Notes: generated by a model from the sequence alone, not told the origin. 64,000 nucleotides of DNA from Ammonifex sp. (GCA_003604985.1 QZIW01000066.1:6948-70947), one strand, 5' to 3'; shown: positions 3,632-29,849, counted from the stretch's first letter. Program-made: numbers and translations.

Positions 3632-3972
3632 CGTAGACCACCAGCCTTGAGGCCCGGCCCGCGCAGAAAGGCCCATGCTTGGGAAGCTATGGTCGGGTCA
3701 TGCCGCAGATTGTATGTCTCGGAAAGCGACCCTATACTGGAACTGGCTACTCCAGACTTTTGCAGCTCCGCCCTTTTGTCACCCGCTAAAAGCCATATAG
3801 CCTGCTCGCAGACGGCCTTATTAAAACGGGTGGATTCTACCATGTCCTCGTAGTCCGCCAGCTGGTTTTCGGCGGTCGTCAGCGCCTTGGTCTTGTCGGT
3901 GTCCGAAGCCGCGTCCCATACCGCGCTGTTTAGGCGAGTGCTGAAATATTCGTTGGCCGCCGTTAGGTCCAC
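3628..3972 (-). CDS. gp6-like head-tail connector protein
   Basis: 114-aa helical ORF immediately downstream of the major capsid gene. Confidence 0.65.
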   Translation of the reverse strand: MDLTAANEYFSTRLNSAVWDAASDTDKTKALTTAENQLADYEDMVESTRFNKAVCEQAIWLLAGDKRAELQKSGVASSSIGSLSETYNLRHDPTIASQAWAFLRGPGLKAGGLR

Positions 3973-4044
3973 CGCCCATCACCTCTCTAAACGGGGCCGT
4001 CCGGCACCCGCTGCCTGCAAATGCCGGACGTTGGCCCCTGTAAG

Positions 4045-5076
4045 TTACTCAGCCAGAACGACACCGATGAAGATGCCGTCTGCGTACGGGAAGGTCGGGA
4101 TCGCGGTGGCCGCAGCTTTGGTCCAGATGCCGGGCGGTTCGTCCACGGCGTCGACGCGGGCATAAATCCCGGCCGCTTCCCTGGCCTCAACCTCGGTGTC
4201 CAATAGCGCCTCAGCGGTCGGCCCCATGAGCGTGTCGCCGCATTTGGTCGGCGGCAGGAGTACGAACCGCGTGGACGGGAAGAAACGCACTGTCGAATAG
4301 GTCCCGGCTTCGGCCTGGCTACGGACCTGCAGGTCGTAGGTGGCGATGGCCGGCAGGTCGAGCTGTTCCATCAAGGTGTTCACCTGCGCCAGGCTCACGG
4401 CGCGGGTGCCGCCGGAATCCCCGTAGATCATTTTTCGAACCTGGGCGTTCTGGATGAGGTAGCTAACCACAGTGTTTGAGGTCAGGGCTCTGGTAGGCCG
4501 CACACCGCAAGCCGCTACCACGGCGTTTACCCAGGCTTGAATCTTCGTGACGGGCTCGGCAGTCGCTACAGCGCTCCAGAGGTCGTTGCCCGCCAGGGTC
4601 TCTTTGTTGCCCGCCGGGACGCCGTAGTCGACGGTCATCATAATCCCGTTCTCGTTCAGTGCCAACTGCCCGTAAGCGACCGCGTCCATCCGCATCTTCT
4701 CAATCCGTGCGTTTACGGAGTCGATCATGTTGTCCAGATCGTTATAGAGTTGGTTGCGAACCCTATCAACGTCGCCGGCGCCCTCACGCTTGAGAGCGAT
4801 AAGCTCCCGCTCGTTAAGCGGAATTTTCCGTTTGATCGGCGGGATCTCGCCGGTGACCTTGTCCGCACCGTCACGACTGGCAATCTGGGCTTCTGCGCCG
4901 TACATCTGCACGCTGGCCATTACCGGCAGGATGTTCTGGTCCTTCCAGTATTCAAAAGTCAACTCGTTGACGGTGTTCACGGGGAACAGCGTGGCCCCGA
5001 CGTAGTTTCGGGGCAGCCGCGCACGGGCATAGGCCAGGACGGCCTTCCGGCTGAACTCTTTAAGCAACGGATTCAT
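4045..5076 (-). CDS. major capsid protein (lambda gpE-like family)
   Basis: 343 aa. Size, position after the decoration and scaffold genes, and N-terminal ...ATLFPV...FEYW... with C-terminal ...IPTFPYADGIF are consistent with the capsid protein E family. Confidence 0.85.
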   Translation of the reverse strand: MNPLLKEFSRKAVLAYARARLPRNYVGATLFPVNTVNELTFEYWKDQNILPVMASVQMYGAEAQIASRDGADKVTGEIPPIKRKIPLNERELIALKREGAGDVDRVRNQLYNDLDNMIDSVNARIEKMRMDAVAYGQLALNENGIMMTVDYGVPAGNKETLAGNDLWSAVATAEPVTKIQAWVNAVVAACGVRPTRALTSNTVVSYLIQNAQVRKMIYGDSGGTRAVSLAQVNTLMEQLDLPAIATYDLQVRSQAEAGTYSTVRFFPSTRFVLLPPTKCGDTLMGPTAEALLDTEVEAREAAGIYARVDAVDEPPGIWTKAAATAIPTFPYADGIFIGVVLAE

Positions 5077-10759: not shown

Positions 10760-11207
10760 TATTGTCCCGCCTGTTATCTTCTTGCCTCACATTCTCGGTA
10801 GGCTCACCCCTGCTTAGTCGCTCGACCTTGACCGCCACGTCGAACCACCTGGCCAGATCGGCCGGCGACAAGTCTTCTGGATTTATCGTCCGTAAGCGCT
10901 CCACGAGTTTCTGCTGGAACAGCATGGCCTGGTTCGCATGCCGTTCGGCCATTGCTTTTACCCGCTTCTCGTTTTCGCGCCGGGCCCCCTGGTCCAGGTG
11001 GTCGTCCCAGGCTTCAACCCGCAAGACCCATTGCCAGCGAGAACTCCAGCGCTGGAGCAAAACCTTGTGTTTGCCTAACTGCTGGGATACTTTCGATAAA
11101 CTCCTGTCAGCACCCATGTCCCGGTAAATGCAAAAAGCCTCAAAGGCTTTCTGTGTCTCGCCTTTCTGTCGTTCCCAGGGCTGTCGGTCGTCCTTGCCCA
11201 ACCTCAT
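10638..11207 (-). CDS. terminase small subunit (HTH-type)
   Basis: 189 aa upstream of terminase large. N-terminal ...AFEAFCIYRDMGADRSLSKVSQQLG... is HTH-like. Overlaps the large terminase gene by 122 nt. Confidence 0.65.
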   Translation of the reverse strand: MRLGKDDRQPWERQKGETQKAFEAFCIYRDMGADRSLSKVSQQLGKHKVLLQRWSSRWQWVLRVEAWDDHLDQGARRENEKRVKAMAERHANQAMLFQQKLVERLRTINPEDLSPADLARWFDVAVKVERLSRGEPTENVRQEDNRRDNNELAKRILSDPEARRLAGQLLGRIIPGSAGTGGPGVGSER

Positions 11208-12130
11208 TCACCACCTAAATAATCGGCGGCCCAGTATTCTATGGCCTGCCAGAGGTTCTTTTTGCCCACATGGCCGTCTTCCTGCATCTGCTTGACGGCC
11301 CGCCTAACCACTTCGGCTGCCTCTTTAGGCATGGTGCCGCTGCCAAATATACTGGAGAGCGCAACCCAGGGCTCGTCATCCTCCCGTATGCCCACCTCCG
11401 CCACTATTTCCAGGGCCGTCCGCGCCATTACGGCGACCGCCGTGCCCGCAGACCGGATGTCCATAAATCGGGAGAACTTGATCACTGCGTCCGCAAACGC
11501 CTTAAACAACTCTATCGGCGCGACGGAGACCAGGTCTTGCCTGCCCTCTAAGCTGTTGATTAGCGCCTTCATGTCGTCCAGTTGGTGAGGAAGAAACACA
11601 AACGATACAGTCTTCCAGTCAAAGTCGACCTTCGGCGCTATAAGGGTGTCCAAGACGGCCTCCGGTTCGGTCAATATATCCTTGGGTAGATGGGCCTCCA
11701 GCATGTCGTCGACATCCGTTATAATTTGCGCTATTTGCCGGATGATGTTTTGGTCGTCGAACCCGCTGATGCTGTTATGTGCGAGCTGTTTAGCCGCTAT
11801 CTGCGAACGGCTCAGCCCCGACTCGTCCAGGAGCACGGTTATTTCCTTCAACCCCGCCTCCCTGGCCGCCCTGCTCCGGTGGTGGCCCGAGATTATTTCC
11901 ACCCTCCCGTTGACCAGGGCGCAGAAGGGCAGGCTTTCCAGGGAGCCACGCTTTTTCACGTTGGCGACCAGTTGTTTGAACATGGCCGGGTTCATGGTCC
12001 GAGCGTTGACATCTTGCTCCCGCAGGTTATCCAGGACAACTCTGGCTATGCTCAGTCCCTGGCCCAGTTCGATTATTTTTTCATAGACTTGGCCCTCGCC
12101 TTCCTCCACTGGGCTTCCTTCCTGAGCCAT
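11204..12130 (-). CDS. ParB-like nuclease domain protein
   Basis: 308 aa with ...VEIISGHHRSRAAREAGL..., a ParB/Srx N-terminal domain motif. Translationally coupled to the neighbouring genes. Confidence 0.75.
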   Translation of the reverse strand: MAQEGSPVEEGEGQVYEKIIELGQGLSIARVVLDNLREQDVNARTMNPAMFKQLVANVKKRGSLESLPFCALVNGRVEIISGHHRSRAAREAGLKEITVLLDESGLSRSQIAAKQLAHNSISGFDDQNIIRQIAQIITDVDDMLEAHLPKDILTEPEAVLDTLIAPKVDFDWKTVSFVFLPHQLDDMKALINSLEGRQDLVSVAPIELFKAFADAVIKFSRFMDIRSAGTAVAVMARTALEIVAEVGIREDDEPWVALSSIFGSGTMPKEAAEVVRRAVKQMQEDGHVGKKNLWQAIEYWAADYLGGE

Positions 12131-13506
12131 TCGGTTAATACCCCCTGTAGACTGTTGTCGTTCAAAGGCGCCTCGTATGTCAGGCGGTACCCCATCTTGG
12201 AATCCTTTGCCCGCCGCACGAGCTTCATAATGCCGCGTTCTTCTTTGCTTTCCGGTTTCGAAGTCAGCATGGCCGTGACCACGCTCTCGACTTTCTCGTA
12301 TTCCAGCGGAGAAAGCACCGGCTTGATCACCGCGCGGGTCAAGGCCGCCATTGACAGGAGCCGGCCCATGCGGAGCGTGTTATGGGGCGTCGTAACGCCG
12401 TAGGTCAGCAGCAGCGCCGTGCGCTCCTCCTGCCCGAACCTCCCGATGTTGAGCCAGCCTGGATCGTATCCGAACACGCCCGCCAGGTACCCGTCCACTT
12501 TTAAGGCCAAGTTGATCGGCGCCGATTTCCCGGCGAAGTTGTGCGTCCAAATAGACCGGTAGTACAGGGCGTTTGCCCTGGTGATGCTTTCCACCTCAAC
12601 GCGCGACCTCTCGGTAATAGCGTGATCCGCCGGCATCGGTGGCCCCTTGAGGGGCTCCATGGCGACCGGGCCTGGGCGGACGATTTTCTTTCCCCGCGCG
12701 AGAGCCTCTACCTCATCCGGCCTGTTTGTTGTAAGGTAGACATTTATGTTTTGGCGCACGCCGAAACGTGCGAATACGGGAGCGCCTGCGGTCTTACCCG
12801 GTTCGTTTTCCTCGTAGCAGATTACCAGGGCCTTTGCGTCCTTTGCCCACTGGCACATTAGTTTTACAAGGCCCGTTTCCGGGTCGAAGATTTCATATGG
12901 CGGTTCCTTCCACCGCATCCTTCCGCCGGTGTCGTACCACTTCTCAAAACCCGCCGTGTATGTGGGCGGGTTGATGCAGACAAGGGCCTCCGGGTCGGAC
13001 AGGACCTCCGTCAGGTGAGCCCACATGCAGAGCGGGCGGTACCTCATTCCTGAAAGCAGTTCCTTCGCCCGCTGTAGCTGCTTTCGGATTACGCCCACAT
13101 GGTGCTCTTGTCTTTTGTGCAGGTCGTGCAGCAACTCGGCGAAATATGTCTTGCCTGCCTTGGTAGCGGTTCTCAGGACCAGGTGCGTCCACAGGGCCAC
13201 GGCCGGGTCGGTCAAGTCCTCCCCCTCGTAGCCATCCGCCTCTAAGCGCAGCCCCGCCAGGTCCTGTCCCGTGATTGCGTAGCCCATTATCGAACTGAAC
13301 ATCGACACGTCGCTGGTGTCGATTTGGTCCGCTGGCCACCCGACAGACTGTGCTAAGTGAGCCATGGCGAAAGCCCCGGCGCATGGTTCTATAAACCGCG
13401 TGTAGCCCTGTCTCAAAGCGTTCTCGATAACCGCTTTCAAGAACGCCTGCTCTTTGGCAACCAGCGTGCCCAGGAAGAAAGAGCCTGGGTTCTGGAAACG
13501 TGCCAT
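12073..13506 (-). CDS. N6-adenine DNA methyltransferase (Dam-like N-terminal half) fused to an uncharacterised C-terminal domain of about 200 aa
   Basis: 477 aa. SAM motif FIEPCAGAF and catalytic INPPTY (an NPPY variant). I could not assign the C-terminal half. Confidence 0.7.
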   Translation of the reverse strand: MARFQNPGSFFLGTLVAKEQAFLKAVIENALRQGYTRFIEPCAGAFAMAHLAQSVGWPADQIDTSDVSMFSSIMGYAITGQDLAGLRLEADGYEGEDLTDPAVALWTHLVLRTATKAGKTYFAELLHDLHKRQEHHVGVIRKQLQRAKELLSGMRYRPLCMWAHLTEVLSDPEALVCINPPTYTAGFEKWYDTGGRMRWKEPPYEIFDPETGLVKLMCQWAKDAKALVICYEENEPGKTAGAPVFARFGVRQNINVYLTTNRPDEVEALARGKKIVRPGPVAMEPLKGPPMPADHAITERSRVEVESITRANALYYRSIWTHNFAGKSAPINLALKVDGYLAGVFGYDPGWLNIGRFGQEERTALLLTYGVTTPHNTLRMGRLLSMAALTRAVIKPVLSPLEYEKVESVVTAMLTSKPESKEERGIMKLVRRAKDSKMGYRLTYEAPLNDNSLQGVLTEWLRKEAQWRKARAKSMKK

Positions 13507-13563
13507 GAGATACCTCCAAACAAAAACAGATGCCCCCGCCGCGAGGCGAGGGCTTTTGTTTTC

Positions 13564-13639
13564 TGGGCCGCCGGGAGGGACTCGAACCCTCCATGCCCCG
13601 TGTAAAGAGCACGGTGCTCTACCGTTGAGCTACGGGCGG
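13564..13639 (-). tRNA. phage-encoded tRNA-like gene, formally anticodon CUU (Lys), atypical
   Basis: Hand fold of 76 nt. Acceptor CCGCCCG/CCGGCGG with one C-C mismatch. D arm GCTC-AACGGTA-GAGC. Anticodon arm CCGTG-CTCTTTA-CACGG. 6-nt variable loop. T arm GAGGG-TTCGAGT-CCCTC. Discriminator C and an encoded CCA. Confidence 0.7.
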
Positions 13640-13658
13640 ACGGTTTTGGTCGTTCGAT

Positions 13659-14099
13659 TTAGAAGAGGCTGAATGTCAACTGGGTAACCGTTTTACTTCC
13701 TTTGTCGGGTGGATAAAGCAGGTCCAGCTCCTCCACTTTTTCCCCTGTTTTAGACCCCCACCACTCCGCAAACACGAGCCTGTGACACCATTCCCGCGGC
13801 TTGCTCACGTCCTCGTAGCAGAGCAGAACCAGGTCCCTTCCGCCGTGCTCCCGGCTGATTCGCTCCAACTGGCGCCGGATTTTTTCGACCCCAATCCGAT
13901 CCAGCTTCGCATAAAACTTTGGCGTAAACGCCGCCCGGTCATTTATTTGGAACATCCATCCGTCCGGGGCCAGTTCCCTGACGTATTCAACCACTTGGTA
14001 CGGCAACGGAAACTTCGGAACGCCCAAAGTGATACCTACCGGCACGAGACCGCTGTCGGCTATTTGCTTGTGTTTATACCGGCCGGTATACAACTTCAC
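13659..14099 (-). CDS. DUF488-family protein
   Basis: 146 aa from a GTG start behind GGGGGGTG. ...DLVLLCYEDVSKPREWCHRLVFAEWW... matches the DUF488 signature. Confidence 0.7.
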   Translation of the reverse strand: MKLYTGRYKHKQIADSGLVPVGITLGVPKFPLPYQVVEYVRELAPDGWMFQINDRAAFTPKFYAKLDRIGVEKIRRQLERISREHGGRDLVLLCYEDVSKPREWCHRLVFAEWWGSKTGEKVEELDLLYPPDKGSKTVTQLTFSLF

Positions 14100-14656: not shown

Positions 14657-14812
14657 TCGGCCTCCTCCTTCGCCAGATACTCCTTATACTTCACGCAATG
14701 CAGGTTGCACGCCAGTTTGCACTTCTCCCGCCTCTCGCATAACCAACAACATCGGTACTTCAGCTCCCGGCAGTCATACCGGCAAAAATTCGCCGGTCCT
14801 TTTTTGGCCATC

Positions 14813-15073
14813 TTAACCGGCCCCGCCTTCCCCGCCTTCGTGGTTATGGTCCGGAGGGACCTCGTGGGCGTTCCATGCCGGGCCACAGAGCTTGACTCCA
14901 TTGTCCCATTTGGCTACGGCGTATTCGGAAAACGGCTCTCCATGCCCTCCGTTCCACCCCTCAAAGACGGCATCGAAAAGGACCTCGCAGGTTGCGGCGT
15001 GGACGTGGACGCGGTACCGCTTGCCCTGTTCGAGCTTCCATCTGACTACCGGCATGCCCAGGTGTACCAGCAT
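14813..15073 (-). CDS. hypothetical protein, first ORF downstream of the late leader terminator
   Basis: ATG 15073 preceded by GAGGTGA. 86 aa: MLVHLGMPVVRWKLEQGKRYRVHVHAATCEVLFD.... The track ORF extends to 15148, into the terminator. Confidence 0.5.
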   Translation of the reverse strand: MLVHLGMPVVRWKLEQGKRYRVHVHAATCEVLFDAVFEGWNGGHGEPFSEYAVAKWDNGVKLCGPAWNAHEVPPDHNHEGGEGGAG

Positions 15074-15103
15074 CAACCCGATCACCTCAGCCCCGCCTTC
15101 CGC

Positions 15104-15138
15104 AAAAAAAAATAGCCCCCGGGGTTTTAGCCCGGGGG
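15104..15138 (-). terminator. strong rho-independent terminator
   Basis: Minus-strand RNA CCCCCGGG-CUAAAACC-CCCGGGGG, an 8-bp all-GC stem, followed by CUAUUUUUUUUU. Confidence 0.8.
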
Positions 15139-15326
15139 TTGCACGCACTTACTTTTTTGGTGGGCGTCGGCTCTGGGACGGCTGGAGTCCCCCGGCGCCC
15201 TATTAAATGCCGACTTGCGGCTTTTAATCCTGGGACGCGGGGCAGGGTTTTGGTGCGCCCCGCCCCGCGTCCAGCCAGCAACGCTTCTCCTGCGGGGAGG
15301 AAGGAGTGGTACCCTTATCCAATACG

Positions 15327-15347
15327 GTATTCCCAAAATGGGAATAC
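15327..15347. promoter_or_regulatory. perfect inverted repeat GTATTCCCA-N3-TGGGAATAC just downstream of the promoter (operator or first leader hairpin)
   Basis: Read directly. 9-bp arms. Confidence 0.5.
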
Positions 15348-15358
15348 GATACGCCACT

Positions 15359-15390
15359 ATAATACTTTAGGTCTCTGGAGATTGTCAACA
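15359..15390 (-). promoter_or_regulatory. near-consensus sigma-A promoter pointing at the late region
   Basis: Minus strand reads TGTTGACA, 18-nt spacer, TATTAT. Lies immediately after the stop of the 15394 gene. Confidence 0.6.
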
Positions 15391-15393
15391 TGT

Positions 15394-15651
15394 TTAAATT
15401 AATTCATACGGACGCCGCTTGGGACGCGGTTTCCGGCGCTTTCTTCCCGCGCGTTTTGAGCCACCTCGTTTGCCTCTCTTGCGGTCTCCCTGCCAGACGA
15501 ACCGGATATGGCTGTCTTTGATCCCTTTGACATGGGGCTCGTCCTCGTCCGGGATGTTGGGCCACCACTCGCCGCAGCCGCCGGGGCACCTGTAAAAGTC
15601 ATGCTCCTGCCACTCCAGCCGCTTCATGCAGATCGGGCAGTGCAGCTCCAT
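15394..15651 (-). CDS. Zn-ribbon protein with arginine/lysine-rich C-terminal tail
   Basis: ATG 15651 behind CAGGAGA. MELHCPICMKRLEWQEHDFYRCPGGCGEWW... and tail RKRGKRGGSKRAGRKRRKPRPKRRP. Confidence 0.6.
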   Translation of the reverse strand: MELHCPICMKRLEWQEHDFYRCPGGCGEWWPNIPDEDEPHVKGIKDSHIRFVWQGDRKRGKRGGSKRAGRKRRKPRPKRRPYELI

Positions 15652-29276: not shown

Positions 29277-29372
29277 TAACCGGGGATGTCAATAAGGTGA
29301 TAACCATGTCGGCAATATTTTAAATTTTGGGCTTCCCAAGTTGGTAGAATAAACTTGCGGGGTGAGGAGATT

Positions 29373-29849
29373 ATGAGCATCCTTGGGGATAGACTTAGAC
29401 GTATCCGGGAAATGCAAGACCCGCCGTTGCTGCAGAAGACGGCCGCGCGGGAAATGGGCATGGAGCCGAACACCCTCAGCCGTTATGAGTTGGGGGAACG
29501 TGAGCCGGACGCCGAAACCCTGGTCAAGCTCGCCGAATACTACGGTACCACGACGGATTATTTATTGGGCAGGGCCAACAACCCGAACCTGCCGGAAGAA
29601 AGGGAAAACGGCGTGATGCAACTCGTGCCCCACCACGCCAGAGACCGGGTAGAAGCATTCTCGGAGCTTGGGGAGATAGCGGATCGGGCCGGTCTTTCGT
29701 CCGAGCAGATTACGAAGTTAATTAAGGTGATCGCCGAAGTGATTGCGCCGCCCAAGGGCAGCAGGAAAAGCAGTTTGGCGGCGCACATGGAGAGCCCTCA
29801 ACCGGGGCAGGTCGCTGGCGGGTGTGTTGATGGGGACGATAACCATTGA
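29373..29849 (+). CDS. CI-like XRE-family repressor
   Basis: ATG 29373 behind GGTGAGGAG. MSILGDRLRRIREMQDPPLLQKTAAREMGMEPNTLSRYELGEREP.... Confidence 0.8.
   Translation: MSILGDRLRRIREMQDPPLLQKTAAREMGMEPNTLSRYELGEREPDAETLVKLAEYYGTTTDYLLGRANNPNLPEERENGVMQLVPHHARDRVEAFSELGEIADRAGLSSEQITKLIKVIAEVIAPPKGSRKSSLAAHMESPQPGQVAGGCVDGDDNH

Follow-up and report, generated by a model that had tools for sequence, protein, structure and literature searches.

What controls the passage from early to late genes in a prophage of Ammonifex sp. (GCA_003604985.1 QZIW01000066.1:6948-70947)? Late-gene antitermination is a textbook paradigm, and the mechanism is known almost only from the lambdoid coliphages. For the many temperate phages of anaerobic Firmicutes that are uncultured, little is known about late control, to our knowledge. 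The stretch of 64,000 nt that was analyzed (called the window here) is prophage from position 1 to approximately 31,400, with nearly all transcription on the minus strand. The region studied, 15104-15651, is the exact border between the early genes and the packaging and morphogenesis genes. A gene for an 85-aa zinc-ribbon protein is followed there by a promoter, a leader and a terminator. These elements had been proposed in a first, sequence-only reading, and every one of them is present, all on the minus strand. On balance, and with slightly better than even confidence, we take the region to be the early/late switch of a temperate phage, a lambda-Q-like cassette that would be built from different parts and would act by protein-dependent antitermination.

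The late promoter is of the sigma-70 type, with TTGACA (15388-15383), an 18-nt spacer and TATTAT (15364-15359). It matches the consensus at 11 of 12 positions and points toward the late and packaging genes, as had been claimed. It ranks first within 1-20 kb, and the whole prophage has only one other site with 11 or more matches (29292-29264). Transcription is predicted to start near 15352. The zinc-ribbon gene (15394..15651) ends with TAA at 15396-15394, and the -35 hexamer begins 5 nt further on; the gene is directly followed by a transcription unit with its own promoter. An intrinsic terminator at 15138-15104 separates this promoter from the late genes. Here, CCCCCGGG-CUAAAAC-CCCGGGGG forms a stem of eight G-C pairs (15138-15116), followed by CUA and U9. 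The energy of the hairpin is approximately -17 to -18 kcal/mol, and it is a free-standing module in every fold prediction. The all-GC stem and the U9 had been recognized from the sequence, but the U-run does not follow the stem directly, as three nucleotides (CUA) lie between them. Further downstream on the same strand are ParB, terminase and portal genes.

The 85-aa protein begins with CPIC-x13-CPGGCGEWWP and ends in the tail RKRGKRGGSKRAGRKRRKPRPKRRPYELI. Its gene has a GC3 of approximately 0.9 and a positive codon score, and the protein is the candidate antiterminator. Public gene calls omit the gene (JGI) or shorten it to 77 aa; the family alignment needs the start at ATG 15651, and the 77-aa database call (P0001) loses the first CxxC. 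AlphaFold predicts a confident Zn ribbon for residues 1-30 (pLDDT >90), one helix (residues 46-58) and a low-confidence, non-helical tail (pLDDT 54-71). The zinc ribbon (CPIC...CPGGC) seen in the first reading stands. The arginine-rich tail proposed with it is a conserved GG-S-x-S-G-R-K-R-K-K element and not a helical arginine-rich motif of the lambda N type. The basic tail is a putative RNA-binding element. A Foldseek search against the PDB returned generic zinc ribbons only (E > 0.9) and gave no link to a transcription factor.

The protein had looked like an orphan. A word-indexed search of 5.8 billion proteins returned only the protein itself, and a single-protein search of IMG/VR returned nothing. 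This impression was dropped because an exhaustive HMMER search of 1.84 billion proteins revealed a family, with 17 relatives or representatives at E<1e-3. A profile search of 5.8 billion proteins yielded 27 family members. The family signature is CPxC-x12-13-[FY][YW]xCPxCxGE[WFY]WP, after which come a one-helix acidic linker, a basic tail whose conserved core is RG.RGG(G)S.SGRK.RKK, and a short aromatic C-terminal motif. The Cys, E, W and G columns are invariant in the alignment, and sizes range from 65 to 190 aa (mostly 80-110 aa). No Pfam, PHROG or NCBIfam model covers the family, and 13 members gave no Pfam match at E up to 1. Named members are annotated as hypothetical (e.g. Dtox_3704 and SOV_04570) or mislabelled generically as Zn-finger or ribosomal proteins. 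The hosts of the organism-named members are Firmicutes (Desulfofarcimen acetoxidans and Sporomusa ovata). Judged by these searches, the family is real, rare and uncharacterised. In L033 (approximately 1425-1900) and L034, which has the same sequence, the next gene encodes a fusion protein in which a paralogous zinc ribbon (...CPECGSEFWP...) and a basic linker are joined to an HNH endonuclease.

The same layout is found in other phage lineages. We gathered 39 loci with family members from viral contigs, metagenomes and assemblies, and scored the coupling to a promoter (cutoff at least 10/12 matches) on 16 representative loci or lineages. A promoter above the cutoff starts approximately -11 to +39 nt from the stop codon in 11 of the 16, and TTGACA is perfect in 10 of these 11. 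The same-strand background is 0.0066 such sites per scanned window, which gives a binomial P of ~5e-21 for lineages that are not fully independent. In three cases the TGA stop codon lies within a TTGACA hexamer (the duplicate loci L038/L055, L058 and L061). This hexamer is the -35 of the scored promoter in L058 only; that of L061 has no -10. Among the promoter-bearing loci, 18 of 20 have at least one hairpin (one or two) with a U-tract before the next long ORF, from +5 to approximately +240, and the leaders measure approximately 40 to 300 nt. Downstream are genes for the small and large subunits of terminase, which belong to five unrelated Pfam types, or ParB-methylase/HNH genes and then terminase. 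Those upstream encode replication proteins together with RusA, RecU or VRR-NUC resolvases. The closest relative, P0122 (48% protein identity; loci L065/L066), has the same architecture as the window: in L065, TTGACA-18-TACGAT lies shortly past the stop, and a leader of approximately 300 nt (z = -6.0) leads to a terminator approximately 35 nt ahead of the first late gene. The claim that a layout like lambda Q/PR'/tR' is formed here from unrelated parts thus has strong comparative support, as the family is coupled to a promoter and to one or more terminators ahead of terminase genes in many lineages.

Because they are near-consensus, these promoters should need no activator. With the order of stop codon, promoter, terminator and late genes, read-through as the regulated step is the only reading that makes sense to us. 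The small protein is the sole component that is always linked, and it would be made by the preceding early operon; this suggests that it is the antiterminator.

A regulator of this kind needs a target in cis, and the alignments indicate where it may lie. Eight loci from the largest subgroup, compared in pairs, have identities of 0.8-0.9 between the gene start and approximately 90 nt past the stop. This block spans the zinc-ribbon gene, the promoter and the first hairpin; the flanks are at 0.2-0.5, with different terminase modules downstream. By this measure, the gene, the promoter and the proximal leader are inherited as one mosaic block, which is the pattern that would be expected of a regulator with its cognate target. 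Between the window and L065, positions +1..+33 are 73% identical (24/33) and share GTAnCGTATnCCC(A)ATTTTnnnAATAnCGT. Identity is 28% (5/18) in the -35/-10 spacer, 32% upstream and 23% (9/40) in the next 40 nt. In three other lineages, AGCTACCYGTC at +1..+11 is 85-92% conserved, with proteins approximately 34% identical and spacers at 6-41%. The box has a window type, GTAnCGTATnCCC, and another type, AGCTACCCGTC. As conservation is confined to +1..+33, the conserved element is transcribed and begins at the predicted start. The DNA of +1..+33 would be buried in an initiating or promoter-proximally paused polymerase, so recognition as nascent RNA is the more economical reading, and we infer that this is the form in which the box is read.

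In the window, the transcribed box GTATCGTATTCCCATTTTGGGAATACCGTATT (15321..15352, +1..+32) is the candidate loading site. It contains two CGTAT(T) direct repeats, the element CCCATTTT and a perfect 9-bp hairpin, GTATTCCCA-TTT-TGGGAATAC (15347-15327). The hairpin is present as first described, but L065 keeps only the sequence of its 5' arm and loop; the sequence rather than the hairpin seems to matter. The leader was expected to be conserved in relatives. This holds for its first 10-33 nt and fails for most of the 250 nt, even at 48% protein identity. A search for covariation, which had been suggested as a check, gave nothing usable, as the first hairpin in the largest subgroup is invariant at the base of its stem and rich in indels at its top. 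In IMG/VR, a degenerate pattern of promoter plus box brought up no additional members of the window/L065 subfamily, and an exact search with the 21-mer hairpin gave two chance matches only, both in AT-rich coding sequence.

The box can also be viewed as DNA. The zinc-ribbon protein could be a DNA-binding regulator of initiation at the late promoter (an activator or a timing repressor, like P2 Ogr/Delta or RinA/ArpU), and the terminators could be leaky attenuators or insulators. The box overlaps the transcription start, where a repressor might sit, and in the window it has a perfect 21-bp palindrome that looks like an operator. However, the palindrome is not kept in the closest relative, L065, and the DNA-operator reading of it was rejected on this ground. 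The -35/-10 spacer and the upstream DNA, where activators bind, are unconserved, and promoters with a perfect TTGACA and 10-12 matches of 12 should not require an activator at all. The slot directly ahead of the terminase genes is, from general knowledge, common to all known late regulators, activators included. A small zinc-binding protein would also recall Ogr, yet no match to Ogr_Delta or to any DNA-binding family was found. The order of stop, promoter and terminator would be pointless for simple control of initiation. We consider a role in initiation unlikely.

The leader measures 249 nt from the predicted start at 15352 to the end of the U-tract at 15104. A 253-nt stretch folds at -119 kcal/mol (z = -5.3 against shuffles). 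The structured body (15139..15320, minus strand) comprises a CU-rich stretch, CACUCCUUCCUCCCC (15308-15294), a GC hairpin with 15-nt arms that are 93% complementary (15272-15233), an AU-rich hairpin (15227-15203), another GC hairpin (15200-15162) and an A-rich linker. As had been noted, it holds no credible ORF. There is no codon-position signal, and all ORFs inside it score -0.18 to -0.38 bits/codon, compared with +0.37 for known genes; a leader peptide was considered and rejected. By blastn and nhmmer, the leader has no match in phage GenBank records or in 26 related prophage loci. Rfam 15 returned nothing for it even at E up to 10 (best leader E 5 to 9), and tRNA-Lys alone passes the threshold in the window.

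The sequence-only reading had seen mutually exclusive GC-rich pairings at 15233-15272, which could have served as a switch. These turned out to be slipped registers of one hairpin, due to a GGGGC duplication. The single plausible antiterminator pairing is that of 15195-15189 (7 nt) with the 5' arm of the terminator, and forcing it gives a fold 14.5 kcal/mol worse than the terminator fold. With no competitive antiterminator fold, the leader is not a self-contained two-state switch; therefore, read-through needs a factor.

The unit from promoter to terminator might be a self-contained small RNA gene, or a cis-acting RNA of the put/EAR type; its product would work unaided, for example through a CU-rich stretch resembling an anti-Shine-Dalgarno sequence; the zinc-ribbon protein would then serve elsewhere, in DNA binding, packaging or nuclease targeting. 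The unit is discrete and has a terminator of its own as well as a strong promoter; its folding is good in both the window and L065. CU-rich stretches occur in several leaders. A conserved trans-acting RNA is nevertheless a poor fit to leaders that vary from approximately 40 to 300 nt and are conserved over their first 10-33 nt only. The fusion of a zinc-ribbon paralogue to HNH in L033 would agree with a separate role for the protein, but the gene and the promoter-proximal leader are inherited as one block. The JGI annotation has a convergent ORF on the plus strand that ends at the terminator; set against this, the first downstream ORF on the minus strand has a strong Shine-Dalgarno sequence 16 nt past the U-tract and no promoter of its own. 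Finally, an antiterminator made of RNA only, behind an unregulated consensus promoter, would leave the late genes constitutive. In our judgment such an RNA is improbable as the explanation of the locus.

A ligand- or tRNA-sensing attenuator (a riboswitch or a T-box-like element) or the antitoxin RNA of a type III toxin-antitoxin system, controlling the downstream ORF, is very improbable and largely refuted: the leader is long and structured, its terminator lies approximately 30 nt ahead of an ORF, 7 nt of it complement the terminator arm and a phage tRNA-Lys gene is nearby, but no Rfam family was found, the terminator is free-standing and far more stable than the antiterminator fold, no tandem repeat was found in the leader, the leader body is unconserved in relatives and the ORF is just 86 aa with no match to ToxN-like or other families.

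As relatives get by with 40-150 nt, the scheme does not account for the bulk of the 250-nt leader. CU-rich stretches are a recurrent feature of the leaders of the window (15294-15308), the L032-type, L047/L052, L063 and L065. Those of L047 and L052 contain CACCTCCTTTCT, which we take to resemble the 3' end of 16S rRNA. Such stretches may pair with Shine-Dalgarno sequences, although pyrimidine runs of this length are not rare. The long structured body of the window/L065 pair and its CU-rich stretches may reflect an added function of the leader RNA.

Protein-dependent antitermination would work as follows. The strong host-sigma-A promoter behind the last early gene would fire unaided, and its transcripts would stop at the terminator 215-249 nt downstream; a lysogen or an early infection would then make only a short leader RNA. 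The same terminator would block read-through from the early operon and so insulate the late genes. As the last early gene is expressed, the zinc-ribbon protein with its glycine/serine/lysine/arginine tail would accumulate and recognize the +1..+32 box, most likely in the form of nascent RNA. It would then join with RNA polymerase in an elongation complex that resists the leader terminator and later ones. The DNA-modification, terminase, portal and capsid genes would be turned on as a result. Constitutive firing, efficient termination, the antiterminator role, loading on RNA and a processive effect are all presumed. Processivity is suggested by a second intrinsic terminator (13532..13553, minus strand), which precedes the DAM-like/GNAT, ParB and terminase genes with no promoter between. 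Late transcripts must pass at least two terminators.

Several observations count against this mechanism. Five of the 16 lineages lack an adjacent promoter: none is nearby in L059, L061 and L033, and in L040 and L060 it comes after an inserted gene. Two loci outside the 16 also have no adjacent promoter; three small genes intervene in L067, and L068 carries a tail-less variant located among tail genes. The gene is absent from all isolate phages in 50,697 GenBank records. The Foldseek comparison linked the modelled protein to no transcription factor, only to generic zinc ribbons, and the HNH-fused paralogue in L033 shows that the zinc-ribbon module is open to reuse in other roles that involve nucleic-acid binding. 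The window has no evident sigma-dependent pause element, and the check found only TATCGT there, with 4/6 matches to a -10, at +2..+7. In five lineages a strong second -10-like hexamer abuts the -10, at -6..-1, and not downstream of the start. The U-tract is separated from the stem by CUA, and the strength of the terminator is uncertain. A degenerate promoter-like site, TTGCAT-17-TAGACT (14163-14135, minus strand), lies in the AT-rich gap ahead of the DUF488-like gene and may, to some extent, drive the DUF488/tRNA/methylase (DNA-modification) cassette independently.

How close is this cassette to known systems? As defined in PMC9388147, a Q cassette consists of the Q gene, a promoter, a sigma-dependent pause element, a terminator and late genes, and three unrelated protein families already serve as Q: Q21 (PF06530), Q-lambda (PF03589) and Q82 (PF06323). 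The zinc ribbon of Q-lambda contacts DNA and the zinc-binding domain of the polymerase (PMC9388147). The cassette in the window appears to fit this layout in gene, promoter, terminator and late genes, and to differ in the protein and in the promoter DNA. The Pfam search (13 members, E up to 1) and Foldseek (generic zinc ribbons only) placed the protein in none of the three Q families, and the spacer and upstream promoter DNA, examined as a Q-binding element, are unconserved between related loci (6-41% identity). As in lambda, the regulator gene comes after replication and resolvase genes and directly ahead of the late operon. A strong, seemingly activator-independent promoter is again followed by an intrinsic terminator a few tens to approximately 250 nt downstream, the late operon contains more terminators, regulator and cis site are co-inherited and both proteins have a zinc ribbon. 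Lambda makes a 194-nt '6S' RNA, beside which the predicted leader of the window has approximately 249 nt. Unlike the Q proteins (150-210 aa), the protein of the window has 85 aa and no helix-turn-helix; its cis element would lie in the transcribed +1..+33 and not in the -35/-10 spacer, the window lacks a clear -10-like pause element and the named hosts are Firmicutes, not enterobacteria.

Lambda N/nut (and HK022 Nun) share with the cassette a small basic protein, a likely target in promoter-proximal nascent RNA, with a short hairpin in the window, and the expected read-through of several terminators. The basic region of N is an N-terminal helical arginine-rich motif, whereas here it is C-terminal, rich in glycine, serine and proline, and predicted to be disordered. 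The 3' arm of the window hairpin is not kept in L065, in contrast to a boxB that pairs with an arginine-rich helix. No boxA-like element was identified, the boundary is late and not early, and a zinc-ribbon domain is present. HK022 put RNA and Bacillus EAR RNA are similar in that a structured promoter-proximal RNA lies upstream of terminators in a long operon, but they need no dedicated phage protein, and their folds are defined and conserved, whereas the leader body here is of variable length, unconserved and tightly linked to a protein gene. The P2 Ogr and P4 Delta proteins, at approximately 70-90 aa and with four cysteines, control late morphogenetic operons, as proposed here. Ogr activates promoters that have no -35 element by binding upstream DNA; the promoters here are consensus, with a perfect TTGACA, and are followed by terminators. 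The protein had no Pfam match to Ogr_Delta (PF04606).

In layout, the cassette can also be set beside conAn of Gram-positive conjugative plasmids. There, the gene of a small, poorly conserved protein is followed by a structured non-coding region of 260-600 bp; both are co-transcribed from an upstream promoter, protein and RNA act together, mainly in cis, and the RNA alone antiterminates at short range (PMC8191782). In both cases, a small protein gene directly precedes a structured non-coding region in a Gram-positive mobile element. Here, by contrast, a consensus promoter splits the gene from the leader, and the terminators lie inside the leader. The loading mode is likely nearer to N/nut or conAn, by analogy, and the function would be like that of lambda Q/PR'/tR'.

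As far as our searches go, the protein appears unrelated to the systems compared, and the cassette probably represents a counterpart of the lambda Q late-gene switch that is new and uncharacterised. More tentatively, and short of an even chance in our estimate, the family, at work in phages of Firmicutes and related anaerobes, could be a fourth, structurally unrelated and by far the smallest group of processive antiterminators for phage late genes. It would load onto RNA polymerase via the nascent late transcript, at its first 10-33 nt, and so combine the logic of the Q cassette with RNA loading of the N type. If this is true, it is an independent solution to the same regulatory problem, and lysogens would constitutively make a short leader RNA (40-300 nt), possibly with a function of its own. 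The family would help to annotate the early/late boundary of such phages and prophages, and a very small protein with a short cis element would be a portable read-through switch for Gram-positive synthetic biology.

The first ORF past the terminator (14813..15088 with its Shine-Dalgarno sequence, minus strand; 86 aa) has no known family and is followed by small ORFs and the packaging region. It had been assigned as the first late gene from ATG 15073, which lies approximately 30 nt past the terminator. The strong Shine-Dalgarno sequence GAGGTGATC (15088-15080) supports this, but the JGI annotation prefers a rival antisense ORF (14804-15115). The codon scores are +0.22 bits/codon for the ATG 15073 ORF and +0.18 for the antisense ORF; strand assignment and identity are uncertain.

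The cassettes of L031 (4240-4635), L054 and L060 (3798-4235) carry an inserted endonuclease ORF of the DUF559 type (Vsr-like). Its place in L031 and L054 is between the consensus late promoter and the terminator, and a selfish nuclease appears to ride the constitutive leader transcript there; in L060, the zinc-ribbon gene precedes it and the promoter follows. Upstream of the zinc-ribbon gene in the window, a 127-aa ORF (15982-15599) overlaps it by 53 nt (15599-15651). The last approximately 30 codons of this ORF look non-coding, and including them cuts its codon score from 0.19 to 0.07. A single-protein search of IMG/VR found no relatives of this neighbor.

The early region of the prophage begins at a promoter with a perfect 12/12 consensus (29292-29264, minus strand) that carries the palindrome GGTGATTTATAATTAAATCACC over its -10. 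A helix-turn-helix repressor gene (29355-29849, plus strand) is divergent from it, as in a classic immunity region. The early genes, on the minus strand, include Phage_rep_O, Dam methylase, DUF5131, deoxyribosyltransferase and a VRR-NUC resolvase. Past the region studied, the minus strand carries a DUF488-like gene, tRNA-Lys(CUU), the DAM-like/GNAT fusion, a ParB-like nuclease, terminase, portal and head genes. The first part of this series (11204-14099) has a conserved order: DUF488-like gene, tRNA-Lys(CUU), the second terminator (26 nt ahead of the next gene), the fusion of DAM-like (PF22555) and GNAT-like (PF22559) domains, and the ParB-like nuclease. The window and 26 genomes (L004-L029), most of them from diverse Firmicutes, have it ahead of terminase, and ARAGORN found tRNA-Lys(CTT) in 16 of the 26 loci. 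A dedicated tRNA beside a GNAT-fold enzyme hints at the idea of an aminoacyl-tRNA-dependent DNA modification. The loci reached through the DAM-like/GNAT gene share this DUF488/tRNA-Lys/methylase/ParB cassette only, and not the zinc-ribbon switch. The position of the degenerate site at 14163-14135 matches that of strong TTGACA-16-TAGAAT promoters ahead of the cassette in related prophages such as L008. In L008, a 216-aa protein with no Pfam match (3745-4395) fills the slot ahead of tandem consensus promoters (4435-4542) in place of the zinc-ribbon protein, and it may be another uncharacterised late regulator in these DAM/GNAT-related prophages.

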